Shown: positions 5,126-27,236 of the stretch, piece after piece
How positions within the stretch are numbered: the first letter of the stretch is position 1
Layout: each line of letters opens with the position of its first letter
Assembly: GCF_006345805.1 (NCBI RefSeq)
Contig: NW_021834041.1
Span: 1 to 27,236 of the forward strand
Length of the DNA stretch: 27,236 nucleotides
Reading direction: 5' to 3'
Origin: Octopus sinensis
Taxonomy: Eukaryota
The notes under the pieces: generated by a model
Database searches by the model: none
What the model was told of the DNA's origin: nothing
What the model saw: the letters and a program-made list of their open reading frames with translations, nothing else
Translations under genes and position numbers: made by a program

Positions 5126-5765
5126 TCTAATATGGCCACCATTAGAATATTACATTTTGAGGCTACAATACAAGCAAACATGAAATCATTATTTCACATA
5201 ATTTGAATAAATAATATGGAATAACAAACTTACCTTCATTGTGTGTAAAATCCTTTGTTGTATAAACTGTGACTTGGTCCCAATGTTCTGTTGTTAATGT
5301 TTGTCTGTGTCACTGCTGCTATGGTGTGACACTGGCTTCATGTTGATGGAATAGTGTTGGTGGTGAGTCAGTGGGAACCAGCAGTTCCCTCTCAAGTCTT
5401 CCTCTGTGGATGGGTGGTGTTTAGTGAGTGTGTGTGTATGCATGTAAGTGAGTGAGAGAGAGAGAGAGAAAGAGGGGAAGAGTGATGGGTGATGCTTACT
5501 CCAGCCTCACTCAGACTTGGTGTTGTGTTTTCCCTCCACAAAGAAAAGAGAGGGACAACAAACTATCAGCTCCACTAACAGTCAGCCATGATAAGTCTAT
5601 ATAACACCAACATGTCTGATGTGGAGAGAGACTGACATAGAAATCCTTAGAACAGAGAGGTTATATTAACAAAATATGGCTGATGCTGTTAATGTGTGTG
5701 TAATTTAAAATATAAACAGAATATTGATGATAATAGTTAGTGTGTCTGACCTAATTCTAAACTAA
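5126..5765 (-). promoter_or_regulatory. Third copy of the Pcdh promoter / first exon block (donor at 5234/5233), for a gene not seen in the window
   Basis: Homologous block with the identical core at 5551-5685. No cadherin exon in positions 1-5200. Confidence 0.62.
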
Positions 5766-5836
5766 CTCTCTCAATCAGGATTTGAAACTTTAAAGATGTA
5801 CTGATATGTATAGTAAATAAATTATATTTCCTGAAA

Positions 5837-6053
5837 TACTGGTCTCAAATTTTCGTACAAGGCTAGCAATTTGGGGTGAGAGAGTAACTCAACTGCATGG
5901 ACCGAGTACTCCACTAGTACTTATTTTATCAACCCTGAAAGGATGAAAGGTAAAGTCGACCGGGATGAAATCTGAACTCAGTATGCAAAGATGGACAAAA
6001 TGTTGCTAAACATTTCACCTGGTGTGCTAATAATTCTGCCAGCTCACTGTCTT
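5837..6053 (-). mobile_element. tRNA-derived SINE (same family as 21330-21543)
   Basis: Aligns with 21330-21543. Minus-strand head with B-box-like GAGTTCAGATT and shared core ccctgaaaggatgaaagg. Confidence 0.7.
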
Positions 6054-6539
6054 ATTTATTTCCTAAAATATTACCATGTAATATAATCCTTATTCAAGAT
6101 TTATATGGAATATACATGTAAACTGTCATCATCATCATCACTTAACATCTACTTTCCATGCTGGCATGGGCTGATATTTCCTCACATCCTAAAATTTAAT
6201 TAATAACTCATTAATAACACATTTTCAAAAGCATTTTTACTTTTAAATTTTATTTTACCAAGAGAAAAATTATTTTAAAATTTCCAAAAATGTTAATCTT
6301 ACCTAAGTTTATGTAATTACAGAGAGTTATATTTTGATTGAAACTTTTCATGCCTATAACTGATGGTTATTTTTTTCATCTGTAAAAACCTTCAAAGATT
6401 TATTTATAATATGTATAGTTTGAAATGCATAGAAAGGAATTCAGTCATATGAAAGCAATATCATGATGTAACTAATATATTTCTGCTGTTTTAAATGTTG
6501 TGTGAATGTTGAAGGTGATATTATTTCTGTTGTGTTAAC

Positions 6540-6661
6540 TTAACTGGCAACAACATCTGGTGTTGAAGGTAACTGTCTCTCTGGAGGTTTCACATATCTG
6601 TCTTGGTAATGGTCTCTCTCACTGGTGCTTGATACATCGGGTGGGGCACCACCATAGATTC
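6540..6661 (-). CDS. Pcdh: Protocadherin A terminal coding exon (GIYGGAPP...RQLPSTPDVVAS*)
   Basis: gtttcag|GA acceptor and TAA at 6542-6540. About 100 nt of downstream 3'UTR also aligns with B and C. Confidence 0.85.
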
Positions 6662-7897
6662 CTGAAACACACATATATATCAAATAAATGTATTGAATAA
6701 GTCACATAGTCAGTAGGTATTTTATGTCAGGGAAAAAAACTGTCAAACCTTTAAAAGAAATTTAGATGTGTTTTAATTGTACAATATATTATGTTGTTTA
6801 CTGATTTTAATTAAATAGTTCTGCTCCATTAGTTTCAAAAAGTATTATAAATCACACCACAATTACCTGTATATTGTGATGAACAACTAATTGTACATAA
6901 TGAAAAACAAGGGACTAATGATGAAAATACTGGACCAGGTTAAAATATATGAAATTAAGAACTTGACAAGGTGAGTAGATATATATCTGAATTTGAAGGA
7001 GATTCATCACAAGGGATAAGTTACAAAACTTAGTGTAAATAATAAATAAATACATAAATAATATATAAATATAGTGTAAATATGAAAATGTAGTATAATA
7101 ATATACAAAGAAATGTCACTCACAACAAAACCCATATCCAAAATATTTTTGTATTCATATAGACAGATTTTATAAAAGTCATTTTATCAATTGTATTTCC
7201 GCATCAGTTTAATAATTTATGTCCCTAACACTTAGCTGAATGGAACAAACACCATATTTTGTAGAAAAAAGTGCAATACCTTTTTAGATTCCTGTAAACT
7301 GTGTACTTATAACTACCAGAATATGAATAAGAATTGAATACTCTTGTAAATGTTCCTAATGTTAGGTTCTTGAAGATATTTTGTGAAATATAAACATAGT
7401 TCAGATCATGTAAATGTTTTCTGTTTTTTTCAGTGTTTAGAGTTAATTCTGGACAATACTGTGATAACCACCTAATGACATTTTATATTATGTAAATTGC
7501 ATTCACAATAACTTTTGAATAGATTACAGCGAGTTGAGCAACAGGATACATGTTTAAGTCAATGACAGTATGTAATATAGGGGAGGTCCTCTATACATCT
7601 TTGCTTTGTACAGGGAGATTTGGTGTGTATGTATAAAGTATTATATTGTCACTTTAAGTATATATTGGTATTTCTAAAAGTTTCCTTACAGCTTTCTATG
7701 TCGTGATTAGTTGATATATTTTAAGGAGAATACATTACATAATGTCACAAAGGCTGTTTCTAAAAAATCATGATTAGAATTCAGGATACGAATTTTATAT
7801 TAATTAACAGATTAAAGAGTTTCATGAGAGTGACTTCAAGAATGAGAGACATGATAATGAAATTAATAACAAATGCAAATGGCTGAGAGTGTTCTAC

Positions 7898-8051
7898 CTG
7901 ACATTGCTGGTATTTCTTCATACTGTCTACTTGACCGCTCACTCCAGCACTGTCCACTGCTCTTACGACTGGCCAGTGTGTCAGTGGGATAGTGAGAAGA
8001 TGGTCTGTTGTCTCCATAAGATGTCACCTCTATTGGTTGACTGTATTTCTG
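7898..8051 (-). CDS. Pcdh: Protocadherin A cytoplasmic exon (154 nt)
   Basis: ttttccag|CAG acceptor and G|gtagaa donor. 51 codons plus 1 nt, in frame. Confidence 0.88.
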
Positions 8052-8688
8052 CTGGAAAATACAATAGCAACAAAATATATTGTAATGGTATCATTTATAA
8101 ATGTGAACCTGTTACATAGCTAATTCTTAAATATTGATGGGTACATGTATGTAATAATATACTATTAACAAGCTATTCTTCCTAACTGCCCATATGAGCA
8201 CCTAACTAGAACAAGTTAACTAAAATTAGACACATCACAAATCATTATTTTATAGCTCACTCTGAAAAAGCAAATAGTGTCCATGGAATTTTTACATCTT
8301 CCTTTATTAGTTATACTACAAATTCATATTGTGCATGTGTCTGTATAATTGCCATACAAGCCTGGAGGCATCTGAACTGCTATATCAATAGTCTTCATAA
8401 AATTAGCAAAGATTCTATTGACAAATGGTAAGAACGTACAATGGTTAATTAAGTCACTGATGCTCTACAGTGTATGAATGAACCCTTGATACTCCTAATA
8501 GGGATTCTCTTGGATTTGAACAAGAAACAGAAGGCATTTGTCATCTCTGCACCATATCAGTAAATTCTTCAGAGCTAATCTAAACCAAAAGCATTTGGAC
8601 AGCAAACAGTATTCTTAAATTTCCAAAGAGGAAAGTAACTTTCATGTAAACATGGTGCCATCTAATAGTCAATCAAAATAAGGCTTAC

Positions 8689-11045
8689 CTTTGTAGACTT
8701 CTGAAGTGTTCTGTTCATCGTTGCTGTCTTCCAGTCTTCAGGATAGTAATGGCTCCTCGAATGACCATATCTGTCTGACATCTCTCCTCGATTACCTGAC
8801 ATCACAGGTACACTGTTGTTACCTTGATAGATCAACTGTCTCATCTCATTGCGGCATTGGTATGCCTGTTTCTCTTCTGCTGTTCTTTCAGATGAGCTAT
8901 TTCTCACATTGTTACATCTCACAATACACAGGGTTATAGAAACCACAATAGCTATAGATACTATCACAGCTGCTACTACAATGATAATCAACAATGTCGC
9001 ATCTATTGTGTTATCACTTGGTAGGTGCACAGCTGTGAACATTGGTGACGTCTTGTTACTAACAGTCAGTGTCAAAGACACACTAGTTGTTGCTGACAGA
9101 ACTGGAGTACCACTGTCTTTCACAACAAACTCAAGCTCATATGATCCAGCATCATTTTGGTAAACTGTGCGAGAGTAAGATAACACACCAGTGAACGAAT
9201 CCAGTTTAAATAACTGTCTCTCGTTACCTGAAACGATTTCATACCTGAGAAAAGCATTCATGTGACTGTCTATATCAGATGCTTTCAGAACTGTGATGTC
9301 GTTCTTACTTTGCGGATGATAGTGGACATTAAGAGTGAAAGGGTCAACACTAGGAAATGTAAAATATGGAGCATTATCATTTCTATCCAATACTTCCACT
9401 TCAACATTCACTGTGTTATTCAGAGATGGGCTTCCATTGTCTTTCACAAAAACCTCAAACTCATAGAAATCTCTGTGTTCTCTGTCTAAAGACTGGTTTG
9501 TTGAAATAAAGCCAGAGTTGATAATCTGGAATGGCAGACGATATTGCTGTTTATTTCTCAGAGAATAAGACAATTCACCTCCCTTACCAATATCTGGGTC
9601 TGTAGCATTGATAAAGCCAATAGGGAAATTAGCTTTGTCATTCTCATAGGTAAGGAACTTGAATGTGTCTTTCGTAAAGTGTGGTTCTACATCATTCACA
9701 TCCAACACTTGGATTGACAGATCTTTATCAGTTTTCAGAGCAGGTAATCCTTTATCTTCACACGACACAGTAAAGTGATAATGTTCCTGTGTCTCTCTGT
9801 CTACTGCTTTCTTTAGAACTATTTTATATTCCTTCGATCCCATTGACTGTAGTTTGAATGTGTCGTCTTTGATATGACAGTTCACCTGTCCATTGTGTCC
9901 AACATCGTTGTCAGTGACCATCACATAAGCAATGAAACTACCAACTTTGATGTCTTCCAGAATGGTAGCTGTGTTGTGATTCTGTGTAGAAATAAAATTC
10001 ACATCAATATTTGGGGGATTGTTGTGTTGGTTGATGACATTTACTATAACCGTTGCTATGGAACTCAGAGGAGGTGTGCCATCATCTCTGGCTTCAATGT
10101 ATATTTTAAAAGACTCTTCTTTATCAATTTCTGAAGATGTAGCTAAATATAATTTCCCAGTATTTTCATCTAAATTAAAATGTCTCTTCACTTTCTCAGT
10201 AGTTTTCCTGGCAAAGTAATATGATATTTTACCATTCCTGCCAATATCTAAATCATTGGCTAATAATGTGACTACTGGAATATTCTTTTTATGTTTATGT
10301 TCAATAGAGACATTGTAGATACTTTGAGAAAATTGTGGTGCATTATCATTTTCATCTTCCACAGATATTTTCACATTTAAAACAGATTGTTTTGGTGGGT
10401 TCCTCCATCTTTAGCAATGACTTCAATATCATAATTGTCCTTCTTTTCTCTGTCTAATTTCTCTTCTAAAATAATTCTTAACGTTGATATTTCATCAGTT
10501 TGTTTAGAAACTGATAAAGAAAAATGTCCATTATCTTTTTTTAATTCATAAGTAATTAAGTTGTTTTCTGGACTCATATCTTTGTCAATAGCATTAGGTA
10601 TGGGTTTCTTCATACCTTTACCATCTCCTTCCCTAAAATGTAGAGTAATTTCTTTCTGAGTAAACTCAGGTTGGTGGTCATTGATGTCTTCTATTATGAC
10701 TTTAATCTTTAAGATCTTCATAAATGTCTTGGATTTGTGAACAGCAACTTTAACGATTTCAAAACATTCTTTCTCATAACTACACACAGACTCAGCATCC
10801 AATGTCTCAACAGTGTACAGTTTACCTGTTCTCGTCACATTGAACAACTGTTCTCCCTTTTGTTGCAGTTGACTAAATGTAATTAAATCCTTATTCTTTA
10901 AGAAGGAGCTGTCTGATTTCTGTAAGTCAGTAGCAATGTCCCCTACATAGGTGTAGGGACTATTCTCTTCTTCAACATGGTATGTGATATCTTCACTTAG
11001 ATAACAGTGGAAGAAAGTCAGTAAAACACAGAGAAATAGCAACAT
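8689..11045 (-). CDS. Pcdh: Protocadherin paralogue A, large exon (signal peptide, EC1-EC6, TM, proximal tail) with one 1-nt frameshift at ~10398
   Basis: ORFs 10377-11153 and 8662-10374 join across ggtgggtt, where gene B has ggtggagtt. ATG at 11045 (MLLFLCVLLTFFHCYLS). Acceptor ttgtttcag| with exon start 11101, donor AAG|GTAAGC at 8689/8688. Confidence 0.92.
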
Positions 11046-11612
11046 TTCTGAACTTGATATTAACACAGTGTCCAGGAAAAAGGTGGTTTGTAAAATTAAA
11101 CCTGAAACAAAAAATATGTATCTCATATCAATAAGAAATGTATGGATTTGCAAACCAAGTTTCTTTTCTTTATTTCATTCATAAAAATATTTTCAATGAA
11201 GAGCAGCAATGCTACTCTTCTTAATATCATGTACAAGTGGACAAGAATTATATGACCAATTCTCACCAAATTTAATTATGTATATTAAGATTCAATGATT
11301 CATAGAATTTCTGAAGACTTAAAGAGTAAAAGTGGCACTTATTTCCAGATAAGTACTCTCAAACAAATATTAATCTGCCTAATTTTGAAGTAAATTAATT
11401 AAAGATGAGAAACGTGAATTGTGGGCAAGATCATAATTGATATTTTGACTCTCATTTTACAATGGAATCTAACTTCGCATCAATATTTTTACAGGTCAAA
11501 ATACAAATATTTTATGGAACTTTGAGTTATTTCCCTTAAACATGACAAACAATTTTAAGTCGAGCAATTATCAATGAAAATATGCTTAGTTATGTACTTT
11601 ACGTACGCACAG

Positions 11613-11671
11613 GTGTGTGTGTGTTTATGTGTGTGTGTGTGTGTGCTTGTGTGTGTGCTTGTGTGTGTGCT

Positions 11672-11710
<39 letters not shown>

Positions 11711-11769
11711 CACTTTCAGAATCTGGTTAATACATTTGTGATAATGCTATATATATATATATATATATA
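11613..11769. repeat. Compound microsatellite (GT)n/(GTGTGTGCTT)n/(TA)n
   Basis: Directly visible tandem repeats. Confidence 0.9.
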
Positions 11770-12670
11770 CAAAGCATTATCAAAATGTATTAACCAGTTT
11801 CAGAAAGTGCAATAATTATATGTTCATGAATTTTTAAAAATACACGTGAAATCGGACAATGAAGTTTCTAAGATTATTAAATAGTAATGATATGCTACCT
11901 GGTGGTTAGTTATTGATCAGTTTAAGATACTAAGCCAAATCGCTTTAACTCAACTCCAAGAAATAATTCCTGTCAATAGCACTAAATTCTAAAGAAATTA
12001 TGAACAAAAGAATTCTATAACATAATACTGTCCATTACTTGACTCATCTGTTTATTGAAGAAAAAAGTCTTACAACAAATTAGACCAGAAGTAAAGAAAA
12101 CATTCGTTTAGTAAGGTGAGTAAGACTTAGCTGATTACTTTAAACTTGATAGGTATGAGAGAATGGCATATACCTGTTTAAACGTCAAACTAATAATTTT
12201 AAATAAAGCCACCTAATGTAAATTTGACAATAATTAAATAATCAACAGATTTACAATTAATTGCGTCCTATAACTGAAAATGAAATAAAATTATGTAGAA
12301 AAAATCTAATATAAATACTTAATGAATGTATCTGAAATTAATTATTCTGAAATATGCATCAAATATTTGGAGACAACCTTTTTAGCGATCTGCAGGTGAA
12401 TGTTTGTTATCTGTGATAGACTAAATTATTTTTGTGTAAATCTATGTCAGCACTTCTTGAGCAAAATTATGATCAAAGCATTCCAACCATGACCATCCCA
12501 TAATTTTTCATATAGTGGTACATTACCATCATTAAAAAAACAATCAACAGATAAAGATTCACACTGGAACAGATAACAAGGAATAATTACCAAATCAATA
12601 CTCTTCATGCAGTTTTAATACCAGGTATTCCTAATGGATTTACTAAATTAACAAATTTTGATTAAAACAA

Positions 12671-13093
12671 GGTATAAGCTTGGTTGTGTGATTAAGAAGT
12701 TTGCTTCCCAATCACATGGGTTTGGGTTCAGTCCCACTGCACGGCATCTTAGACAAGTGTCTTCTACTATAGCTTCAGTCTGACCAAATGCTTGCAAATG
12801 GATTTGGTAGACAGAAACTGAATGAAAGAAACCCATCGTGTGTGTAAGTGTCTCTCCCTCTCTTCGTATTATGTGACAGTTGTAAAAGAGTGACACTGTT
12901 ATACAAGCAGTGAGGTTCTTTCCAATCATCTATTAAAACATGTCTGGCCAACAGTAAATATTACCTTATTTGGAAATAGGTGAGGTTTGGCAACAGGAAG
13001 GGCATTAGTCCATAGAAAATCTGACTCAATAAACATTTTCTGACCCATACAAACATGGAAAAGTGAATGTTAATAAAAACATGATGACAATGA
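12671..13093 (+). mobile_element. tRNA-derived SINE with LINE-like 3' end and degenerate (ATG)n tail
   Basis: A-box-like TGGTTGTGTGATT and B-box-like GGTTCAGTCCC. The 3' part (ggaagggcat...catggaaaagtg...atgatg) resembles the reverse complement of 20729-20870. Confidence 0.68.
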
Positions 13094-13459
13094 TCAAAGA
13101 ACATACTAGAAAATGTTAGAAACACTTCTGGGTTATTGCTGAAAACATATTAAGTATGTAAACTAAAAACAATCATTTACTGATCAACATTGGCCATACT
13201 TGTACATTGAATTTGTTAAACACATTTCATAGACAACCAATATGAAATATTACATCATGAATACTGTTCAGTGACTGAACAAAAGAAGTGAATACAAAAC
13301 TATACTCATCAATAACTCACGCAAAGCAATGAACATTTGCATCCACCCAAGACTAAACACACACACACACACACAATATACTATCAAAAGTAATAATGGT
13401 TTCTAACTAATATTCTTTTTCTTAATTAAAATTTCTTATATGAACATGAATTGCAATGA

Positions 13460-13494
13460 ATATATATATATATATATATATTATATATTATATA

Positions 13495-13527
<33 letters not shown>

Positions 13528-13530
13528 TAT
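13460..13530. repeat. Imperfect (TA)n microsatellite
   Basis: Directly visible. Confidence 0.9.
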
Positions 13531-13692
13531 AAAAAAGGCAGACAAGATAAACAGTGTGAAAACACAAAAGATAAGAGAATATGCTTTGAGCAGAATGCTA
13601 GTGACAAGGATTGAACACACTCACTTCACTCTCTGTTTTTCACAATCTTTTCCATAACCAACTCATAAAGACATTAAATGAGAACAAACAGA

Positions 13693-14345
13693 TCTAATAT
13701 GGCCACCATTAGAACGTTACATTTTGATAATATAATATGGTTATATATGAAATCATTATTTCACATAATTTGAATAAATAATATGGAATAACAAACTTAC
13801 CTTCATTGTGTAAAATCCTTTGTTGTATAAACTGTGACTTGGTCCCAATGTTCTGTTGTTAATGGTTGTCTGTGTCACTGCTGCTATGGTGTGACAATGG
13901 CTTCATGTTGATGGAATAGTGTTGGTGGTGAGTCAGTGGGAACCAGCAGTTCCCTCTCAGTCTTCCTTTGTGGATGGGTGGTGTTTAGTGAGTGTGTATG
14001 TGTATGAGAGAGAGGAGTATATGAGTGATGCTTACTCTAGCCTCACTCAGAAGTGATGCTTTCTCTAGCCTCACTCAGATTAAATGTTGCCTTTCCCCTC
14101 CACAAAGAAAGGAAAGAGAGGGAGAAAGGGACAACAAACTATCAGCTCCACTAACAGTCAGCCATGATAAGTCTATATAACACCAACATGTCTGATGTGG
14201 AGAGAGACTGACATAGAAATCCTTAGAACAGAGAGGTTATATTAACAAAATATGGCTGATGTTGTTAATGTGTGTGTAATTTAAAATGTAAATACAATAT
14301 TGACAATAACAGTTAGTGTCTGTCTGACCTAGTTCTAAATTAATT
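13693..14345 (-). promoter_or_regulatory. Conserved promoter / first exon block of Pcdh A (donor at 13801/13800)
   Basis: Homologous block. Donor 2.7 kb upstream of the gene A acceptor at 11101. Identical core at 14127-14261. Confidence 0.7.
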
Positions 14346-14736
14346 CTCCCATTTAGAATGTAAAATGGAGAGAAATCAAAACTGTGAAATAAAGTATTAT
14401 TTTTAAAATGTAATATCATCATTTTATTACTCAAATATATGTTATACAATTGTCTTATATTTGTTGCTTAAATATTTTCAATTTTAAATTGTATTTCACG
14501 AGTAAAAATGTCAATCTATAATTTCTTAGTCATTCCTTTATCTTTAGTTTACCTAACAGAGCTATAAATGTATTCCTCTTACCTAAGCTGTAAAATTATT
14601 GTCTGAAACACATACAAAGATATTCAGTCATATGTTGGCAATATTATTAACTAACTAATATATTTCTGTTGCTTTTAAATGTAGTGTGAATGTTGAAGGT
14701 GATATTATTTCTGTTGTGTTCCTTTCTCAGTCTCAC

Positions 14737-14858
14737 TTAACTGACAACAACATCTGGTGTTGAAGGTAACTGTCTCTCTGGAGGTTTCACATATCTGTCG
14801 TGGTAATGGTCTCTCTCACTGGTGCTTGATACATCAGGTGGGGCACCACCATAGATTC
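14737..14858 (-). CDS. Pcdh: Protocadherin B terminal coding exon (122 nt including TAA)
   Basis: gtttcag|GA acceptor. Translates GIYGGAPP...RQLPSTPDVVVS*. Confidence 0.85.
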
Positions 14859-15196
14859 CTGAAACATATATATCAATGGGTATTCAACGATTGACTTTAG
14901 TCAACAGTTCCTTCTTTTATATTAAGTGCTCTACAAAATAACTATTATAAAGAGATTAATACCTCACTATACGATTAGACCTATACAATCTTGAGCATAT
15001 TACGTGACAATTAACTAATAAATAAAAAGAGATTTACACTTTTAATTTATAAATTTAATTCATAGTGATAAAACTATTAGAAATAACATTTTGGAAGTGC
15101 TCAAAATCCTAGTGTTTGTTTAGACTTCACTCCCAGACATATCAATGGGATAAATGATAAACACACCAAAAACATAGGTAAATGTGAATGTTTTAC

Positions 15197-15350
15197 CTGA
15201 CATTGCTGGTATTTCTTCATACTGTCTGCTTGACCGCTCACTCCAGCACTGTCCACTGCTCTTACGACTGGCCAGTGTGTCAGTGGGATAGTGAGAAGAT
15301 GGTCTGTTGTCTCCATAAGATGTCACCTCAATGGGTTGACTGTATTTCTG
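15197..15350 (-). CDS. Pcdh: Protocadherin B cytoplasmic exon (154 nt)
   Basis: ctaacag|CAG acceptor and G|gtaaaa donor. Near-identical to the A and C copies. Confidence 0.88.
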
Positions 15351-17007
15351 CTGTTAGAGAAAACAAAAAACAACAATGACTTGATTTGTCCAAGAAAAAC
15401 ATTTGGGAATTCTGGATGCTTACTGTTTTGGGGTGTAAAGGTTAGGGTGTGTGGTTAGTGTGAGATATGGGAGAGGAGACCATGGTAAAAGTTTTGAGAC
15501 TGGAATGAGTTTTCAGCAAGCTATTCATAGAAAGAGTCCATGGCAGTGGTAAGAGAAGAAGAAATGAGAAGGAACATCTCAGACGCAGACGTTAGTGCAT
15601 TGCTTAGTGAGTCTTCACTGATCACTAAAAGAAACATTGTTTGAAAATTTTTCAAGTCAACACTAAGATGCAGAAGGTAGCTAAGAGATTTTAGATAATT
15701 ATAACTACACATCTATTGAAGAGAAGAAATAAGTGCCATAATGATAAATTATTGCCAAGAAAGAAGGATACCTCATGAAATATTAACTATTTAACATTAA
15801 TTAAAAATCAAGGATGTTTGTGTGTGAAGTAGCAGTGATAACATTTCAGCTTTATAGGTCAAGGCATGTGAGATCATTAGATTCGAGGATTTTGATAAAA
15901 ACTTCACACAAACACAACTCAAGAAGCTTCTATTCAACCTAAAACACTCACAAAATATTCTTTGTTTCCTTACAAGAAGTAGTGGTCTTAGATCCATTAT
16001 TTTTAGAAAAAGAACAGGATAGCCACAATCTATACGTTCATTCTTCCAGTTATGTTGCATCTCCATATATTGATGGACCATATCACTTTGACTCTGCTTT
16101 TCTACTTTCACTTACAGAAGCCTCAACTCTCAGAGGTCCCACCCTGGGCGACTCATCTTACTCATCTCTTCTCCTCTAGTCAATCGTATTGCCAGCCTTT
16201 CTGCACCCTACAACGACCACTTAATCTTTCTGCCACAGCACATTTTCCCCACTGAAATTCACTCTACTCCCATACTTCTCCAGCTGTTTTATACCAGTAA
16301 TTGCTCAAGAGAGTATGCCACATTAACCTCAATTGTGAGGGTCAAGGACACAGTCCCTACATCTGGTAAAAACCCTTATGTAACAGAAAAAAAAACTTGT
16401 ATATTTATATGCCAGTGTAATGATTTATTTAAATATTGAATGTTGTTACAGTCAAATAATAATAAAATATCACAGACATTTGGTGTAGATGAGCAACATA
16501 ACATACCAGAAATAACAATTTCTACTCTCAACTCATAATTCTAAAAGAGTACAAAATAAACTAAAACTAAATTCTGAATTAGAAGCAGCTCTAATACTAT
16601 AAACATAATTGATGTCACAAACTTAATAATTGTGTTTAGTTTGAAGAGTTACAAGTCACAGGATTTCATCCATGGAAAGTTTCTTTAAGGCATACGTTGA
16701 AGAACACTGAATACTTCAAAACCAAACAAAACAGATGAAATACACAATTGATAATGTTATACAAACATTGTTGGATAATAATTATGGAAATAATATCTAA
16801 AACTATATTTATGAAAATATAAAGATTACACTAAAAGTATAAATGAAGTTGTTCTCCAGAGGAGATTTAAGAGAATACCGAAATAGAAGATTAATACATA
16901 TTTTCATGCTTTTTGGCAAACTTCAGTTCAATGTCAATGTCTTCTATTCAAATAGTTCTTAATTGAACATTAACTACTAACAAACACTCAATCCAAATAT
17001 ATCTTAC

Positions 17008-19351
17008 CTTTGTAGACTTCTGAAGTGATCTGCTCATTGTTGATGTCTTCCAGTCTTCAGGATAGTAATGGCTCCTCGAATGACCATATCTCTCTGACAT
17101 CTCTCCTCGATTACCTGACATCACAGGTACACTGTTGTTACCTTGATAGATCAACTGTCTCATCTCATTGCGACATTGGTATGCCTGTTTCTCTTCTGCT
17201 GTTCTTTCAGATGAGCTATTTCTCATATTGTTACATCTCACAATACACAGTGTTATAGAAACCACAATAGCTATAGATACTATCACAGCTGCTACTACAA
17301 TGATAATCAACAATGTTGCATCTATTGTGTTATCACTTGGTAGGTGCACAGCTGTGAACATTGGTGACGTCTTGTTACTAACAGTCAGTGTCAAAGACAC
17401 ACTAGTTGTTGCTGACAGAACTGGAGTACCACTGTCTTTCACAACAAACTCAAGCTCATATGATCCGGCATCATTTTGGTAAACTGTGCGAGAGTAAGAT
17501 AACACACCAGTGAACGAGTCCAGTTTAAATAACTGTCTCTCGTTACCTGAAACGATTTCATACCTGAGAAAAGCATTCATGTGACTGTCTATATCAGATG
17601 CTTTCAGAACTGTGATGTCGTTCTTGCTTTGCGGATGATAGTGGACATTAAGAGTGAAAGGGTCAACACTAGGAAATGTAAAATATGGAGCATTATCATT
17701 TCTATCCAATACTTCCACTTCAACATTCACTGTGTATTCAGAGATGGGCTTCCATTGTCTTTCACAAAAACCTCAAACTCATAGAAATCTCTGTGTTCTC
17801 TGTCTAAAGACTGGTTTGTTGAAATAAAGCCAGAGTTGATAATCTGGAATGGCAGACGATATTGCTGTTTATTTCTCAGAGAATAAGACAATTCACCTCC
17901 CTTACCAATATCTGGGTCTGTAGCATTGATAAAGCCAATAGGGAAATTAGCTTTGTCATTCTCATAGGTAAGGAACTTGAATGTGTTTCGTAAAGTGTGG
18001 TTCTACATCATTCACATCCAACACTTGGATTGACAGATCTTTATCAGTTTTCAGAGCAGGTAATCCTTTATCTTCACACGACACAGTAAAGTGATAATGT
18101 TCCTGTGTCTCTCTGTCTACTGCTTTCTTTAGAACTATTTTATATTCCTTCGATCCCATTGACTGTAGGTTGAATGTGTCATCTTTGATATGACAGTTCA
18201 CCTCTCCATTGTGTCCAACATCATTGTCAGTGACCATCACATAAGCAATGAAACTACCAACTTTGATGTCTTCCAGAATGTGGCTGTGTTGTGATTCTGT
18301 GTAGAAATAAAGTTCACATCAATATTTGGAGGATTGTTGTGTTCATTGATGACATTTATTGAACGATTGCCAGAGAACTGAGAGGGGAAATACCATTATC
18401 CCTGGCTCCAATATAATTTAAAATTCTTCTTTCCAAACTCTATTGATTTAGCTAAATATACACTCCTGTATTTTCATTCAAATGAAAATATTTTCTCATC
18501 TTCACATCAGTTTTCTGACTGAAATAGAAAGATATTTTACCATTCCTGCCAATATCTAAATCACTGGCAGATAATGTGACAACTGGAATATTCTTTTTAT
18601 GTTTATGTTCAATAGAGACATTGTAGATACTTTGGGAAAATTGTGGTTTATTATCATTTTCATCTTCCACAGATATTTTCACATTTAAAACAGATTGTTT
18701 TGGTGGAGTTCCCCCATCTTTAGCAATGACCTCAATATTGTAGCTGTCCTTCTTTTCTCTATCTAATTTATCTTCTAAAATAATTTCTAATGTTGATATT
18801 TCATCAGCTATTTTTGATTGGGATAAGGAAAAATGTCCATCACCATGTAATACATATTTGATTAAACTGTTCTGATTACCCATATCTTTATCAATGGCAT
18901 TAGGTATCATCTTTTTCATACCTTTACCATCACCTTCACCAAAGATCAGTGTAATTTCTTTCTGAGGAAACTTAGGCTGGTGGTCATTGATGTCTTCTAT
19001 TATGACTTTAATCTTTAAGATCTTCATAAATGTCTTCGATTTGTGAACAGCAACTTTAACGATTTCAAAACATTCTTTCTCATAACTACACACAGACTCA
19101 GCATCCAATGTCTCAACAGTGTACAGTTTACCTGTTCTCGTCACATTGAACAACTGTTCTCCCTTTTGTTGCAGTTGACTAAATGTAATTAAATCCTTAT
19201 TCTTTAAGAAGGAGCTATCTGATTTCTGTAGGTCAGTAGCTATGTCCCCTATATATGTATAGGGACTATTCTCTTCTTCAACATGATATGTGATATCTTC
19301 ACTTGAATAACAATGAGAAAATGTCAATAAAATACAGAGACACAACAGCAT
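17008..19351 (-). CDS. Pcdh: Protocadherin paralogue B, large exon (EC1-EC6, TM, proximal tail); several frameshifts as assembled (pseudogene or sequence error)
   Basis: ORF fragments 18452-19387, 17962-18240 and 16948-17730 are collinear with gene C. Signal-peptide ATG at 19351 (MLLCLCILLTFSHCYS). Acceptor ttttacag| with exon start 19396, donor AAG|GTAAGA at 17008/17007. Small deletions at ~17735, ~17987, ~18280, ~18360 and 18400-18470. Confidence 0.88.
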
Positions 19352-20728
19352 CTCTGGTCGTGATGTCCAGGAATTTGGTAGCTTCACATTATTAATCTGT
19401 AAAATAAATAGATAGCTTGTAGTGGGAAGAAATAAAAAACATATTGTGAAAGACTATTTTAGTAATGAATAAATAATCTCCTTCTTATAAGAAAACATAC
19501 CAAAAGTAGGACTGAAGTAAAGTATCCCAGGGGGAACTTACTGCTCACTAAATATACATTGTCTGCCATATATTTTATGGCAAGTTGAAGATCTTTACTT
19601 AATCTGAAATTGTCTTTGCAATAGTAATGAGAAGGCAATAATTTGGACAACTAATTCATATGATTTAACAGGTTCTTCTCATAAGTCAGATAACTTGAGA
19701 CTACTTAAACAGCGCAGTTTCTTATTCTAATAATTTATTGTAATTAATCTTATAAAATATTGTTCAAAGTGACATTCATTATAAAACTGCTCCAATTTGC
19801 CAAACTTCATAAAGATAATAACCACCACATTCCCATACTCTCAAAATAATTAACTGATTAAAAATTATTATACAAGTTGCTGAAACTTCAACATAGACAT
19901 TACAGACTTCACGAAAAATTATAAAATATGACAAAATAATTATAGGTTTTGTTTATAGCCTAATGGGAAAATAATGTTTCCTTCAGTTATACAGCCTAAA
20001 TTGAGTTCGCTCCCTTGAACAGCATTACCAATAGCAAACGAAATTATTTTGCATTGAGTTTCTCTTATTTCTTTGGTCCCCGAATGAAAATGTAAATATA
20101 TGTAAAATAATTATCGGTAACGCTTTTCTGCAAATAACTCAACGTAATTCACAAGAACACAGTAGAATACATAAGTGGGCAAGAGTGTATTTGTGCATGT
20201 GTGCAATAAATTCAATGTTATTTTGTTGTTATATTATACGTTAATTACTGATAAAACTATATTTGTTGATGTGACATTGTTTAAAAAATATTAGTATACT
20301 ACAAATAATGTAATAGTCAGGAAATCATTGTCAGACATGCAAAGGGTAAAGTTTAAGGCAGGAATATGTGGTTACAACAATTCTGCTAGAACAGAAGAGA
20401 TGAAAAACAAAATATAAATTCAAACCACATACAATTTGTCTGACGGTTATAATGGCACCAAAGATGGACATCTGGTCATCATTCACAAAACACTATGATA
20501 ATATTAAGAAGCAGATATTCCAGAATAGAGAAGATATAAACTAGAAGCTATTTAAATGACAAATTTAGAAAAGTCATTTAGTGAAATGAAGTTATGGAAA
20601 CCAAACAAATATTCACTTTTCAACCATAAAATTAAATCATTATCAATCAATATGGCCTTTTTATATTACAATATCTATCATTCAGTTCCAGTTATATTGC
20701 AATAACATAGTAATGGCAAAGATAATAT

Positions 20729-20870
20729 CATCATCATCATCATCATCATCGTTTATAACGTCCATCTTCCATTCTAGCACGGGTGGGACGGAATCACAAG
20801 AGCCTGCACCAGACTTCTGTGACTGTTTAGGCAGGATTTTTACAGCTGGATGCCCTTCCTAACACCAACC
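20729..20870 (-). mobile_element. 3' fragment of a SINE/LINE with (ATG)n tail
   Basis: (CAT)n run followed by acgtccatcttccattctagcacggg...ggatgcccttcct. A shorter related tail lies at ~6127-6173. Confidence 0.55.
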
Positions 20871-21129
20871 ACTTGTAATTTTTTTGGAAGTTACGTTCTA
20901 CACTAATTCCTGATAAAACTATATTTATTGATGTGACATATTTCTGTCTTAACCTTTACCTGTTCCATGTCCCAATGCTACATGACATTGATGCCTCTGT
21001 CTGACAATGCTTTTTCATGGATGTAACATTATGTGTTGTATACTAATATTTTTTAAATAATGTCACATCAACAAATATGGTTCTATAAGTAATTAGTGTA
21101 TAATATAACTTCACAAAAAATTACAAGTG
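20870..21129. mobile_element. Inverted-repeat (MITE/foldback-like) element with ~70-bp arms
   Basis: 20870-20939 (cacttgtaattttt...gatgtgaca) is an imperfect reverse complement of 21061-21129. A third related arm lies at 20228-20299. Confidence 0.6.
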
Positions 21130-21329
21130 ACTATTTTTTTAAATTTTGTAAAACAACTCTACACTAAATTGATAGAGGACATGCTTGAGATGACATTTTT
21201 TAAAATATCCGATTATGATGAATATCATACCAATATTTTTTTAAGTTTCACACAGCAGGTATGGTTCATTAGCTTAGAAATAATCCTAGGTAGATGAATT
21301 CGAAATTTATAAATGTAAGGACTAATAAT

Positions 21330-21543
21330 CTTTACTATTGTAGGCACAAGGCCTGAAATCTGGGGATAGGGAGCTAGTCATTTACATCAACCCCAGTGTT
21401 CAAGTGGCACTTGTATAACTGACCCCAAAAAGATGAAGGGTAATGTTGGCCTAGGTGGAATTTGAACTCAGAATGTAAAGACAGCCAAAATGCCACTAAG
21501 CATTTCATCTGGCATGCTAATGATTCAGCCAGTTCCCTGCCTT
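21330..21543 (-). mobile_element. tRNA-derived SINE
   Basis: Minus-strand A-box-like TGGCTGAATCA and B-box-like GAGTTCAAATTCC. Homologous to 5837-6053. Confidence 0.7.
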
Positions 21544-21614
21544 AAATTAAAGAAGTAATAATGAAACAAGACAAGATATACAGAAATTAACCAATTAATG
21601 TATTTAGACAAACA

Positions 21615-21637
21615 AACACACACACACACACACACAC
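21615..21637. repeat. (AC)n microsatellite
   Basis: Directly visible. A similar (AC)n run lies at ~13357-13376. Confidence 0.85.
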
Positions 21638-22036
21638 TTAAACATCATAAAACACATAAAAATACATACAACAATATCGATATCAATTTTTATTCATACT
21701 TTTCTTTCTTGTTACTACACAGTCAAATGTTAGTTTTATAATATATTTTATTATATTATTACTATAATTTCATACATATGGAAATAGTCTGCCACCGAAA
21801 TATTTCAGAGAAATTCCTATAAAATGTCTGTATCAATTTATCAGTACACAATCATTTAGAAGAAACTAGTTAAGAATAAGGAAACAAGTACATGAAAACC
21901 TGGGAACATTAAAAATATAGTATATTGAAATAATGGACATTATATTCCTAAACAGTTTTTCTTTTCCTAGAGCTGTTCTCAAAATATTCAACAGCCAACG
22001 TCTGAAAAGAAGACATTCAATATGAACTGACACAGA

Positions 22037-22662
22037 TCTAATATGGCCACCATCAGAATATTACATTTTCATATTACAAGAAGGCTACATATGAAATCAT
22101 TATTTCACGTAATTTGAATAAATAATATTGAACAATAGACTTACCTTCATTGTGTGAAATCCTTTCTTGTATAAATTGTGACTTGGTCCCAATGTTCTGT
22201 TGTTAATGGTTGTCTGTGTCACTGCTGCTATGGTGTGACAATGGCTTCATGTTGATGGAATAGTGTTGGTGGTGAGTCAGTGGGAACCAGCAGTTCCCTC
22301 TCAGTCTTCCTTTGTGGATGTGTGATGTTTAGTGAGTGTGTGCATGGGTTTGAGTGAGAGACAGAGAGAGGAAGAGAGATGGGTGATGCTCACTCCAGCC
22401 TCACTCAGACTTGATGTGTTTTCCCTCACAATGAAAAGAGAGGGACAACAAACTATCAGCTCCACTAACAGTCAGCCATGATAAGTCTATATAACACCAA
22501 CATGTCTGATGTGGAGAGAGACTGACATAGAAATCCTTAGAACAGAGAGGTTATATTAACAAAATATGGCTGATGTTGTTAATGTGTGTGTAATTTAAAA
22601 TGTAAATACAATATTGACAATAACAGTTAGTGTGTGTGTGTCTGACCTAATTCTAAACTAAA
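22037..22662 (-). promoter_or_regulatory. Conserved promoter / first exon block of Pcdh B (donor ATGAAG|GTAAGT at 22145/22144)
   Basis: One of three homologous blocks. Strong donor 2.75 kb upstream of the gene B acceptor at 19396. Contains the identical 135-bp core at 22441-22575. Confidence 0.7.
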
Positions 22663-23084
22663 TCTCCTTTCTAGAAAATTTAAGGCTGCCATGTAAACTA
22701 TATTTATATTTAAAATGTAATGGAGGCATTTTACATCATAAAGTTGTTGATATTTATTGCTTGAGACATTTTTTAATGTCAAACTTTACTTCACTGGGAG
22801 GAATATATATCAGTGATTTCTTCCAATATTGCATTTACCTTTCGTTTACCTAACAATAGAGTGGTGTGAATTGATTAATCAGAACAATTGATGCTATATC
22901 AGTTTTATCTGCAGAAACCTACCCCAGATGTACACATTTCAAATAATTTGTCAGAAATACATACAAAGATATTCAGTCGTATGTTGGCAATATTATTTAC
23001 TAACTAATATATTTGTGTTGTTTTAAATGTTGTGTGAATGTTGAAGGTGATATTATTTCTGTTGTGTTCCTTTCTCAGTCTCAC

Positions 23085-23206
23085 TTAACTGACAACAACA
23101 TCTGGTGTTGAAGGTAACTGTCTCTCTGGAGGTTTCACATATCTGTCTTGGTAATGGTCTCTCTCACTGGTGCTTGATACATCGGGTGGGGCACCACCAT
23201 AGATTC
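23085..23206 (-). CDS. Pcdh: Protocadherin C terminal coding exon (GIYGGAPPDVSSTSERDHYQDRYVKPPERQLPSTPDVVVS*)
   Basis: gtttcag|GA acceptor completes the phase-1 Gly codon. TAA at 23087-23085. Conserved in three copies. Confidence 0.85.
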
Positions 23207-23505
23207 CTGAAACACACATATATACATCAACTGAACTTATCGTATGGTACACAAAGACAATAAGTATTTACTGACAGGCTTTGGTCAATATTCTCTTCTC
23301 TTCTATGCAATAATCTACTAAACAACTATTATAAAGAAATTAATACCTCACTATACAATAGATCTGTACAAACTTCAGCAGATCAAATAACAATTAAACT
23401 AATAAATAAAATTATCATAGTGTTCGTTTAGGGCTCACTCCAAAAGATATCATTGGGGTAAATGACAAATATACCAATTAAGATAGGTAAATGAAAGTGT
23501 TTTAC

Positions 23506-23659
23506 CTGACATTGCAGGTATTTCTTCATACTGTCTACTTGACCGCTCACTCCAGCACTGTCCACTGCTCTTACGACTGGTCAATGTGTCAGTGGGATAG
23601 TGAGAAGATGGTCTGTTGTCTCCATAAGATGTCACCTCAATGGGTTGACTGTATTTCTG
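23506..23659 (-). CDS. Pcdh: Protocadherin C cytoplasmic exon (154 nt; QKYSQPIEVTSYGDNRPSSH...QYEEIPAMS)
   Basis: ttttacag|CAG acceptor and G|gtaaaa donor. Open in phase with the upstream exon and conserved in all three paralogues. Confidence 0.88.
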
Positions 23660-24440
23660 CTGTAAAATGCAATAGTAACAAGACATATTATACAGATAAC
23701 ATTTGACTGACAGTCCTATATCTAATATTGAATAAAATAGTTTCTGTCTGATAAAATAAGGCAGCTTATGCATTATATCACTTCAATTAGTAAAATGTAA
23801 CACACGCTTATACAAGGTAATTTATTTGAAATATGACAATGTTCCAAGATAAAAAAAGAGAGAAATTACTAAAAAGTCAATGATGACACTAGTGAAATTA
23901 GTGATCACTCCATATTAAAAGAAGTGTACATATTCGATAAAGAATCAAAACCATAATTGTCTATTATTAATGTCCAGATACATTTATCATGAGATGGATT
24001 AAAACAGAGGCATTAAAGGATTAACTTAACTTTATATAAAGAGAGAAAATTGAAAAATATCAACACAACTTCCATTTCTCTGTCAATTGTTTCCTATTAG
24101 CCTATTTGAACCTACACATGCACACACACTATATACCTTGAATTCTCATTCAGACAGTGCACATAGCTGTAAACAATTTCAACAATATCCAAGTCAACTC
24201 ATTACTAAGTCTACTCATTTTTGACTGTAATTAAAGAGATTACTAAACCTACAATGTATGAAAGCATCTTTGATTCTTGTTGTGGTAGAATTGCTAGAGA
24301 TTCATTAAACATCAAATAACTTGTAACATGCACAGGACAAAATGTATTTCTCATCAATACATCACGAAAGTAATTTTTCAACATGGCATATTTCATATTA
24401 AATACATTTGGAAATTAAATACTACCAATCATCAAGGACA

Positions 24441-24787
24441 GTAAGGGTAAAGACCCCCTTCGGTCATGAATGACCATGGGAGCACATAGCACCCTCTAGC
24501 ACAGTCCTCAAAAACACAAGTCCGGGCAGTTGTTTATGGAAGACCAGCAGTCGCCCATGCATACCGGCCTCCCTCTCCACGCCACCAGTGTTATCCAAGG
24601 GAACAACAAAGGTCGATACAGCTTGGCACCTGTGATGTCGCAACTCATTTCTACAGATGAGTGAACTGGAGCAACGTGAAATAAAGTGTCTTGCTCAAGA
24701 ACACAACACGCAGCCCGGTCCGGGATTCGAGCTCACAACCTTACGATCGTAAGCTCGACGCTCTAACCACTGAGCCATGCGCCTTCA
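24441..24787 (-). mobile_element. Relatively young tRNA-derived SINE in intron 2 of Pcdh C
   Basis: Head GGCGCATGGCTCAGTGGTTAGAGCG...GAGCTCGAATCCCGG with A box and near-consensus B box. GC-rich with CpGs retained, and a short (TTACCC)-like tail. Confidence 0.78.
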
Positions 24788-24893
24788 GTGATTCTGATAT
24801 AAAGGAACAGTGATTCTGATATAAATTAATAAACTTGATCATTTTTAATTAAATGCTATTTACTGCAAGACTGATAATTGAAATAAAACTTAC

Positions 24894-27236
24894 CTTTGTG
24901 GACTTTTGAAGACTTCTGCTCATTGTCGATGTCTTCCAGTCTTCAGGATAGTAATGGCTCCTCGAATGACCATATCTCTCTGACATCTCTCCTCGATTAC
25001 CTGACATCACAGGTACACTGTTGTTACCTTGATAGATCAACTGTCTCATCTCATTGCGACATTGGTATGCCTGTTTCTCTTCTGCAGTTCTTTCAGATGA
25101 GCTATTTCTCACATTGTTACATCTCACAATACACAGGGTTATAGAAACCACAATAGCTATAGATACTATCACAGCTGCTACTACAATGATAATCAACAAT
25201 GTCGCATCTATTGTATTATCACTTGGTAGGTGCACAGCTGTGAACATTGGTGACGTCTTGTTACTAACAGTCAGTGTCAAAGACACACTAGTTGTTGCTG
25301 ACAGAACTGGAGTACCACTGTCTTTCACAACAAACTCAAGCTCATATGATCCGGCATCGTTTTGGTAAACTGTGCGAGAGTATGATAACACACCAGTGAA
25401 AGAGTCCAGTTTAAATAACTGTCTCTCGTTACCTGAAACGATTTCATACCTGAGAAAAGCATTCATGTGACTGTCTATATCAGATGCTTTCAGAACTGTG
25501 ATGTCGTTCTTACTTTGCGGATGATAGTGGACATTAAGAGTGAAAGGGTCAACACTAGGAAATGTAAAATATGGAGCATTATCATTTCTATCCAATACTT
25601 CCACTTCAACATTCACTGTGTTATTCAGAGATGGGCTTCCATTGTCTTTCACAAAAACCTCAAACTCATAGAAATCTCTGTGTTCTCTGTCTAAAGACTG
25701 GTTTGTTGAAATAAAGCCAGAGTTGATAATCTGGAATGGCAGACGATATTGCTGTTTATTTCTCAGAGAATAAGACAATTCACCTCCCTTACCAATATCT
25801 GGGTCTGTAGCATTGATAAAGCCAATAGGGAAATTAGCTTTGTCATTCTCATAGGTAAGGAACTTGAATGTGTCTTTCGTAAAGTGTGGTTCGACATCAT
25901 TCACATCCAACACCTGGATTGACAGATCTTTATCAGTTTTCAGAGCAGGTAATCCTTTATCTTCACACGACACAGTAAAGTGATAATGTTCCTGTGTCTC
26001 TCTGTCTACTGCTTTCTTTAGAACTATTTTATATTCCTTCGATCCCATTGACTGTAGTTTGAATGTGTCGTCTTTGATATGACAGTTCACCTGTCCATTG
26101 TGTCCAACATCATTGTCAGTGACCATCACATAAGCAATGAAACTACCAACTTTGATGTCTTCCAGAATGGTAGCTGTGTTGTGATTCTGAGTAGAAATAA
26201 AATTCACATCAATATTTGGAGGATTGTTGTGTTGGTTGATAACATTTATCTGAATTATTGCAATGGAACTGAGAGGAGGAATTCCATTATCTTTGGCTTT
26301 CACATATAATTTAAATGATTCTTTCTTACCAAAATTTATAGGTTTTTCAAGAAATAACTTTCCAGTACTTTTATCTAAATGAAAGTATTCTTTTATCGTT
26401 TCATCAGTTTTCTGACTGAAATAGAAAGATATTTTACCATTCCTGTCAATATCTAAATCACTGGCAGATAATGTGACGACTGGAATATTCTTTTTATGTT
26501 TATGTTCTATAGAGACATTGTAGATACTTTGAGAAAATTGCGGTTTATTATCATTTTCATCTTTTACAGATATTTTCACATTTAGCACAGACTGCTTTGG
26601 TGGACTTCCCCCATCTTTACCAATAACCTCAATATTGTAGTTGTCTTTCTTTTCTCTGTCTAATTTATTTTCTAAAATAATTTCTAAAGTGGAAATTCCA
26701 TCTGCTTCTTTAGAAACACTTAATGAAAAATAGTTACCTCCACCATTTAAGTCATAATTAATTAAGCTGTTTTGGTAACCTTTATCTTTGTCGATGGCAT
26801 TAGGTATGGTTTTCTTCATACCTTTACCATCTCCTTCTCTGAAATGTAGTGTGATTTCTTTCTCAGGAAACTCAGGTTGGTGGTCATTGATGTCTTCTAT
26901 TATGACTTTAATCTTTAAGATCTTCATAAATGTCTTGGATTTGTGAACAGCCACTTTAACGATTTCAAAACATTCTTTCTCATAACTACACACAGACTCA
27001 GCATCCAATGTCTCAACAGTGTACAGTTTACCTGTTCTCGTCACATTGAACAACTGTTCTCCCTTTTGTTGCAGTTGACTAAATGTAATTAAATCCTTAT
27101 TCTTTAAGAAGGAGCTGTCTGATTTCTGTAAGTCAGTAGCAATGTCCCCTACATAGGTATAGGGACTCTTCTCTTCTTCAATATGATATGTGATATCTTC
27201 ACTTGAATAACAATGAGAAAAAGTCAATAAAATACA
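24894..27236 (-). CDS. Pcdh: Protocadherin paralogue C, large exon (signal peptide cut by window edge, EC1-EC6, TM, proximal cytoplasmic tail); reading frame intact
   Basis: 792-aa ORF with six cadherin repeats (DINDHQP, DENDNKP, DVNDVEP, DRNDNAP linkers; LDRE motifs), EC1 Cys-X5-Cys (CSYEKEC) and TM LLIIIVVAAVIVSIAIVVSITLCIV. Phase-0 donor AAG|GTAAGT at 24894/24893. By comparison with gene B the start codon lies just beyond 27236. Confidence 0.95.

Follow-up and report, generated by a model that had tools for sequence, protein, structure and literature searches.

Three protocadherin genes from a larger octopus array

The window analyzed here is a whole contig of Octopus sinensis (NW_021834041.1, here G000:C10512; 27,236 nucleotides [nt]) that carries three protocadherin genes, A, B, and C, all on the minus strand. 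Each gene has a large exon 1, which encodes a signal peptide, six extracellular cadherin (EC) repeats and a transmembrane (TM) segment, and its own exons 2 and 3. The exon 1 product matches Pfam PF08266 (Cadherin_2) and five PF00028 (Cadherin) stretches, with EC1 through TM in one open frame, as in protocadherins generally, and the proteins identical or nearest to these genes are annotated O. sinensis protocadherins. Among the three genes, EC1 and the region from EC4 to the cytoplasmic tail are nearly identical, while EC2 and EC3 are divergent. Here we describe this domain-restricted pattern, how it probably arose, and what it may mean for recognition between cells. The features of the window are as follows.

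8689..11045, minus strand: gene A exon 1 (signal peptide, EC1-EC6, TM, first cytoplasmic part), with a 1-nt assembly gap at 10400
10668..10994, minus strand: gene A EC1, homogenized within the g06-g30 sub-block
10012..10667, minus strand: gene A EC2-EC3, variable block
8689..10011, minus strand: gene A EC4 to the end of exon 1, homogenized array-wide
7898..8051, minus strand: gene A exon 2, own copy, with a tandem CAGCAG acceptor; joints 8689/8691 to 8048/8052 in two RNA-like runs
6540..6661, minus strand: gene A exon 3 coding part, own copy
17008..19351, minus strand: gene B exon 1, with several small gaps that are likely assembly errors
18327..18973, minus strand: gene B EC2-EC3; EC3 differs by 1.2% from the distant g19 and by 14% from g06/g07
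15197..15350, minus strand: gene B exon 2, end placed by the length of gene A exon 2
14737..14858, minus strand: gene B exon 3 coding part
24894..27236, minus strand: gene C exon 1, an open frame with Pfam Cadherin_2 and five Cadherin stretches; the contig end cuts the signal peptide
26217..26873, minus strand: gene C EC2-EC3; EC2 differs by at least 10.6% from every C14 copy compared
23506..23659, minus strand: gene C exon 2, end placed by the length of gene A exon 2
23085..23206, minus strand: gene C exon 3 coding part

These genes belong to a much larger set. On C14, 43 exon-1 copies (g01-g43) lie head to tail on the same strand within 570 kb, and the fetched array contains 40 exon-2 and 41 exon-3 matches. 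An open frame of at least 790 codons is present in 35 of the 43 copies; the 8 frame-broken copies were excluded from codon statistics. The window thus belongs to one of the coleoid arrays, chromosome-14 tandem sub-arrays of full-gene duplicates, that are described in the available passages of Albertin et al. 2022 (PMC9068888) and Jiang et al. 2022 (PMC9795677).

Because C14 at 59.556-59.570 Mb is 98.7% identical to window positions 1-14080, and most unique flank tiles of the remaining window match C14 at about 92-99%, the contig reads as a partly second-haplotype copy of part of the C14 array. Its first half (1-14080) is near-identical to C14, its second (14046-27236) is a few percent off, and it has three genes where C14 has four; the contig may therefore switch haplotype or differ from C14 in gene count. 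The gap in gene A is an assembly error, as its otherwise identical C14 counterpart g08, with zero substitutions in the six segments compared, lacks it. Gene B has seven frame-breaking or short gaps and one 3-nt gap, likely assembly errors too. Contigs from two runs that we take to be RNA cover exons only and join gene A exon 1 to the position of its own exon 2; they also cover parts of gene A EC2-EC3, with one difference each.

Divergence is concentrated in EC2 and EC3

Pairwise DNA identity among A, B, and C is 96.9-98.5% in EC1, 80.7-83.0% in EC2, 78.1-84.9% in EC3, 97.6-98.8% in EC4, 100% in EC5, and 98.4-99.0% in EC6, followed by 98.0-99.3% in TM and 95.0-96.8% in the first cytoplasmic part. 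Variable columns make up 173 of 646 in EC2-3 versus 43 of 1646 elsewhere (Fisher P = 4e-63). A sequence-only reading of the window had reported this contrast, and it holds for these three genes (95-100% versus 78-85% DNA identity); all six peptides quoted there were found, with EC2-EC3 coordinates correct within a few bases.

The array-wide domain profile was computed on the 24 intact genes of g06-g30, unless the wider set of 33 intact genes (g02-g40) is named. Amino acid identity for EC1 through EC6 is 0.968, 0.748, 0.762, 0.991, 0.999, and 0.993, and synonymous divergence (dS) is 0.094, 0.553, 0.513, 0.039, 0.002, and 0.050. The near-identity thus extends to synonymous sites, as had been claimed (EC4-6 dS of 0.002-0.05 versus 0.55 and 0.51 in EC2 and EC3). 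Since EC1 identity falls to 0.825 (dS 0.48) across the 33 genes and EC4-6 stays at 0.989-0.999, EC4 to TM is common to the whole array and EC1 only to sub-blocks. The earlier description of EC1 as near-identical is therefore accurate within the sub-block of the window but not across the array. Four genes (g02, g31, g32, and g33) approach synonymous saturation against the g06-g30 group in EC1-3 (proportion of synonymous differences [pS] 0.48-0.74), with a pS of 0.001 in EC5. In genes g35-g41 (59.82-59.87 Mb), EC1 is of a separate type and exon 3 has diverged, with about 60% identity to that of the g28 type; EC4-TM and exon 2 are those of the other genes.

The description of EC2-EC3 as variable likewise stands overall but must be refined by block: EC2 strands F-G and EC3 strands A-B form an internal, largely homogenized block of about 70 codons (amino acid identity 0.923, dS 0.24). 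Within this block, the DENDNxP linker between EC2 and EC3 carries one highly variable residue (Ala, Lys, Arg, Pro, or Thr; model residue 219, at about 26546 in gene C); this linker lies at the vertebrate interface.

The common domains are maintained by apparent gene conversion

One rival explanation would be that assembly collapse or polishing made the common parts look identical; the window duplicates sequence of C14 and contains indel errors, and frame-broken copies occur on C14. Logan contigs argue otherwise. Single, difference-free, unbranched short-read unitigs span EC4-5 in three runs (534 nt in X1, 380 nt in X3, and 635 nt in X6), at about 40 times the depth of flank unitigs in the two runs that cover flanks (X1 and X3), and a 213-nt EC1 unitig has about 24 times that depth. 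These ratios match the gene counts, depth being no strict measure of copy number. Run X3 likely stems from another animal, because its flanks carry differences from the window that are supported at full depth. Collapse, which the sequence-only reading had itself raised as grounds for rejection, is contradicted by these unitigs and by the profile in another genus, described below, with its species-specific residues. It is unlikely as the cause of the identity, and we give it next to no weight.

Another possibility is that the genes arose by recent tandem duplication and that EC2-3 then changed fast under adaptive selection. In its available passages, PMC9795677 dates the burst of one octopod cluster to 8-14 million years ago (Ma) from whole-gene distances, and g06/g07 and a few other neighbors do have common flanks. 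Most flanks, however, cannot be aligned: only 7 of 300 pairs align in the 300 nt upstream and 26 of 300 in intron 1, whereas exon-2 matches are 93-100% alike in 39 of 40 cases. Synonymous divergence also exceeds replacement divergence in EC2-3. At the array edge, g43 (C14 59988057, L055-L056) is converted over only part of EC5-EC6, leaving a visible tract boundary.

The same profile is found in Argonauta hians, in which 24 representatives have amino acid identities for EC1 through EC6 of 0.73, 0.64, 0.60, 0.97, 0.98, and 0.98. These sequences were chosen by EC4-6 similarity as representatives of 90% clusters, which biases EC1-3 identity down yet cannot create species-specific EC4-6 residues. 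Argonauta EC4-6 is 0.94-0.95 identical to that of the octopus genes, and the majority residue differs at 15 columns, of which 4 are fully fixed (33/33 versus 24/24) and 3 are tied to an alignment shift. Quick trees of 58 proteins, from which one gapped Argonauta row and three Octopus vulgaris rows were left out, differ accordingly by domain: the EC4-6 tree requires 1 species change (support 91), and the EC2-3 tree requires 14, with species monophyly rejected (approximately unbiased test, P = 5.6e-5). Well-supported octopus/Argonauta EC2-3 pairs include g42/P0033, g32/P0031, and g02/P0029. Such cross-species pairs imply that the duplicates are older than the octopus-Argonauta split, calibrated at no younger than about 29 Ma in the available passages of PMC12682272.

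With EC2-3 clades common to both genera and no positive selection (see below), recent duplication is very improbable. Whole-exon distances of 0.07-0.08 against EC2-3 distances of 0.23-0.27 understate divergence about threefold, and whole-gene dating of these arrays is biased young. Taken together, the dS profile, the unalignable flanks, the Argonauta data and the disagreement between EC4-6 and EC2-3 trees bear out the proposed homogenization by gene conversion. By sequence comparison, the pattern is domain-restricted concerted evolution, not collapse or recent duplication, in which conversion homogenizes EC4-6 and, within sub-blocks, EC1, and spares EC2-3. Conversion in coleoid arrays was previously suggested from whole-gene trees (PMC9068888, available passages); the arrays, full-gene duplication and suggested conversion are published in the parts seen of PMC9068888, PMC6339937, PMC10084454, and PMC13218726, and the supplement of PMC6339937 does not mention the word "conversion."

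A neighboring protocadherin sub-array on C14 at 59.097-59.36 Mb (L061-L083; 20 of 23 fetched genes intact) repeats the profile. Its EC4-6 differ strongly from those of the array of the window, and its dS for EC1 through EC6 is 0.20, 0.53, 0.61, 0.08, 0.02, and 0.02 (20 genes). In L075, EC4 strand A has a short stretch typical of the array of the window, which suggests conversion between the two arrays.

EC2-EC3 escape homogenization and are shuffled as modules

The ratio of replacement to synonymous divergence (dN/dS) is 0.29 in EC2 (95% confidence interval [CI], 0.21-0.38) and 0.27 in EC3 (0.20-0.36). Site models on four block trees detected no positive selection (M1a = M2a, with 82% of sites at 0.11 and 18% at 1), within the limits that saturation and block trees set on this test. 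As no positive selection was found, EC2-3 appear to escape homogenization rather than to evolve fast. The term "diversification" used in the sequence-only reading is accordingly too strong, given also that the most variable loops lie off the vertebrate interface and that EC1 varies across the array. Nor is variation limited to EC2-3 in the neighboring array, where EC1 F-G and EC4 strand A vary too.

Conversion acts inside EC2-3 as well. The region is a mosaic in which incompatibility grows with distance (test similar to the pairwise homoplasy index, P = 2e-4), with 23 module combinations in 24 genes, and each of the 35 intact genes has an EC2-3 of its own. The EC2 A-B module varies independently of the remaining variable blocks (r of 0.04-0.12, split-half 0.77), and EC2 C-E is coupled to EC3 C-G across the homogenized block (r of 0.46-0.63). 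Gene B has flanks of the g06/g07 type (3-4% different), yet its EC3 sides with g19 by the distances listed above; B-type EC2 was found without differences in contigs of other runs. If gene B is an allele and not an extra copy, these observations would suggest an allelic cassette swap and ongoing conversion. On contig C12667, two genes are 9-10% off their C14 counterparts in EC2 versus 3-5% in flanks, and a third is nearly identical.

These data bear on a neutral account, in which EC2-3 merely drifted past the similarity that conversion requires, with no selection for distinct binding, and the array supplies interchangeable adhesion proteins whose dosage or separate regulation is what matters. 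The low dN/dS without a positively selected class fits this account, as do the position of the top-variable loops and the escape of flanks and introns from conversion. It has more difficulty with the sparing of the same two domains in two arrays with strongly different EC4-6, in Argonauta and in vertebrates. The 70-codon block between the variable blocks is homogenized, and of the 65 interface-element residues only 7 fall within it. Finally, conversion acts inside EC2-3, yet no two genes are identical there. We regard neutral escape as improbable, though a more serious contender than duplication.

The predicted ectodomain is compatible with an antiparallel EC1-EC4 dimer

The predicted EC1-4 model (predicted local distance difference test [pLDDT], 86) has the same fold as protocadherin structures, with about 30% identity to vertebrate clustered protocadherins (Pcdhs). 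Of the 30 fold matches listed, 29 were protocadherin or Dchs/Fat chains, with Pcdhs on top and the delta-type Xenopus Pcdh8.1 the best. We combined the model strands with the vertebrate interface list of PMC5115871 (available passages). Mapped in this way, the elements of the vertebrate EC2:EC3 contact lie in the variable blocks, and within EC2-3 the interface elements vary more than other positions (entropy 0.77 versus 0.56 bits, P = 0.017). Site variability in EC2-3 correlates with that in Argonauta (rho = 0.68). A complex prediction of two gene C EC1-4 copies without an alignment (score 0.01, mark 0.32) was not used as evidence.

The top inter-domain covariation pair was 96/389, between EC1 and EC4; many high-ranking pairs involve gapped columns (45 and 155) and were disregarded. 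The residues at 96 and 389 are oppositely charged in 122 of 124 cephalopod-type proteins, made up of 66 of 67 octopod proteins, after dereplication, and 56 of 57 cuttlefish-like ones. At the second pair, acidic 82 is matched with basic 359 in 24/24 octopod and 41/41 cuttlefish-like proteins. Mouse gammaB4 has Glu at 82 and Lys at 359, and the family of the window carries the reversed state, with a basic EC1 and an acidic EC4. The Pcdh19 trans salt bridge E81-R349 seems equivalent to 82/359, judging from alignment offsets. This charge pairing (EC1 F/G to EC4 B/D-E) supports a vertebrate-like antiparallel EC1-4 dimer, as a prediction from covariation. The non-charge pair 96/406 tracks the same clades as 96/389.

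Two charge classes, EC1 basic with EC4 acidic or the reverse, occur among P0001-P0120 and 57 of P0152-P0271; a few proteins, such as P0235, switch one pair only. A further charge pair, 82/333, was dropped, as it comes only 915th-1444th among 72,222 inter-domain pairs and does not occur in the cuttlefish-like proteins. In only 5 pairs of the 57 cuttlefish-like representatives does any domain reach 90% identity, and these pairs show mixed patterns, too few for a test of domain-level homogenization in decapods.

In all 20 intact genes of the second array, the type of EC1 F-G agrees with that of EC4 strand A, the types having been defined after viewing the alignment. The block correlation between EC1 F-G and EC4 A is 0.61, and the blocks that separate them are only weakly correlated, with r at most 0.31 (17 genes, after removal of 3 divergent ones). 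These two elements touch in vertebrate dimers (PMC5001838, available passages).

Comparison with vertebrate clustered and delta-protocadherins

The resemblance to vertebrate clustered Pcdhs that the sequence-only reading proposed is close. For EC1 through EC6, identity in the mouse alpha cluster is 95.9, 69.3, 58.5, 85.5, 98.0, and 84.3% (PMC4978886, Table 1, seen in part), compared with 96.8, 74.8, 76.2, 99.1, 99.9, and 99.3% in octopus. Both systems are head-to-tail arrays in which a single large exon encodes all six EC repeats together with TM; they have their highest dS in EC2/EC3 and lowest in EC5/EC6, and share a Phe-X10-Phe loop in EC3. In contrast, the vertebrate alpha and gamma clusters splice to shared constant exons, whereas each octopus gene has its own, conversion-homogenized exons 2-3. 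The cephalopod cluster is reported to be independent of the vertebrate one and not orthologous to it (PMC9068888, PMC4978886, and PMC9712504, available passages).

Delta-protocadherins (Pcdh19, Pcdh1, and Pcdh8) also form an antiparallel EC1-4 dimer, with a salt bridge from an EC1 acid to an EC4 base (contacts described in the passages of PMC7082078), and the best sequence and fold match, Xenopus Pcdh8.1, is of this type. Unlike the octopus array, they are single dispersed genes with heterophilic cross-talk and no array-wide conversion. The passages of PMC9068888 and PMC9795677 contain no domain-level analysis, cross-species EC2-3 clades, module shuffling or dimer evidence. We found no domain-level analysis of cephalopod Pcdhs in the literature searched, seen in part; an earlier statement in Albertin 2015 or Wang and Ragsdale 2017 is possible. 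The passages of PMC6339937 state that nothing is known of cephalopod Pcdh adhesion specificity, and those of PMC9068888 make no functional claim.

A candidate recognition code

Taken together, these genes belong to an array in which gene conversion homogenizes EC4-6, the membrane anchor and the tail, and in which old differences in EC2-EC3 probably give each protein its own binding specificity in the predicted antiparallel EC1-EC4 dimer. Conversion keeps EC4-EC6, the anchor and the cytoplasmic exons alike array-wide and EC1 alike within sub-blocks. Selection would remove tracts that erase EC2-3 differences, since these would leave two genes with one and the same tag, and tracts that swap whole EC2-3 modules would be tolerated, giving new combinations. 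The homogenized tails may serve as a constant region with one signaling output for all isoforms, which vertebrates obtain through shared constant exons. By analogy with the vertebrate neuronal identity proteins, the array genes likely form an independently evolved recognition code. As the antiparallel dimer may be ancestral to protocadherins (argued for vertebrate families in the passages of PMC5001838), the convergence would lie in the clustered, conversion-shaped repertoire and not necessarily in the binding surface.

Several points weigh against a recognition code of this kind. The interface enrichment is modest and its sites are not independent; the most variable loops, EC2 C-D and EC3 E-F, lie outside the listed vertebrate interface; and, as noted, no positive selection was detected. 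The EC2 A-B module shows no coupling to EC3 (r of 0.04-0.09) though contact is expected, and 7 of 276 pairs have at least 90% identity over EC2-3. The charge swap may reflect few events (2-8 changes on a poorly resolved tree), and the EC1 F-G/EC4 A coupling was not seen in 10 Argonauta representatives. At the vertebrate cis-dimer positions, octopus genes have Phe at 532, the position of Tyr532 in the vertebrate interface, and, with Leu555 in an alignment gap, an EC6 Lys at 560, like the alpha-type Arg560, where gammaB7 has the Val560 needed for one side of the vertebrate EC5-6 cis dimer (PMC8901172, available passages). The passages of PMC9712504 report ubiquitous or cell-type-enriched expression and do not mention stochastic choice.

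The last points raise the question as to whether the variable domains instead fine-tune adhesion among cell types, graded or heterophilic, in the manner of vertebrate delta-protocadherins, rather than acting as a barcode for self-recognition of single neurons. Enriched or ubiquitous expression, with about 21 PCDH genes per neuron (PMC9712504, same passages), is in line with this possibility, as are the Lys at the Val560 position, the delta-type best fold match, an EC1/EC4 common to 24 genes and the close EC2-3 pairs. Mouse beta6 and beta8, however, are strictly homophilic at 92% EC1-4 identity (PMC8901172, available passages), and close EC2-3 pairs therefore need not cross-react. Short-read single-cell counts, moreover, may not separate paralogs with near-identical exons; the pattern suggests that such counts would blur them. 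Cell-type adhesion is in our view unlikely, although less so than neutral escape.

More speculatively, octopods may have independently built a vertebrate-like neuronal code on the ancestral antiparallel dimer and run it by conversion alone, with a common constant region for about 40 separate genes, selection-protected contacts, ancient EC2/EC3 modules reshuffled into tags that differ even between the haplotypes of a single animal, and an EC1/EC4 charge reversal that defines two non-binding classes; we hold this extended version to be possible but somewhat short of an even chance. The pattern of evolution itself is real and well supported, and by comparison appears as a convergent form of a pattern described in vertebrates, within an already known gene family, with the functional reading likely. 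The map of domains and strands points to segments suited to swaps, to two charge pairs, and to natural near-pairs such as g18/g20, g19/g21, and g06/g07; g16/g17 are a module-sharing pair.

Other features of the array

GC content at third codon positions (GC3) is 0.20-0.26 in EC2-3, below the 0.34-0.38 of the other regions. Fourfold sites lack this trend, however, and EC2-3 GC3 is likewise low in six genes that lie outside the arrays; GC-biased conversion is not claimed. Tandem CAGCAG exon-2 acceptors (minus strand) are found at 8048-8053, 15347-15353, and 23656-23662. The extra Gln that they allow is present or absent among annotated proteins, and RNA-like contigs show two joints. Dispersed repeats that are common to the three gene units and recur elsewhere in the array, along with a short inverted repeat pair, lie at 5096-5787, 13668-14365, 22004-22666, and 20216-21129. 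They are likely transposon remnants.

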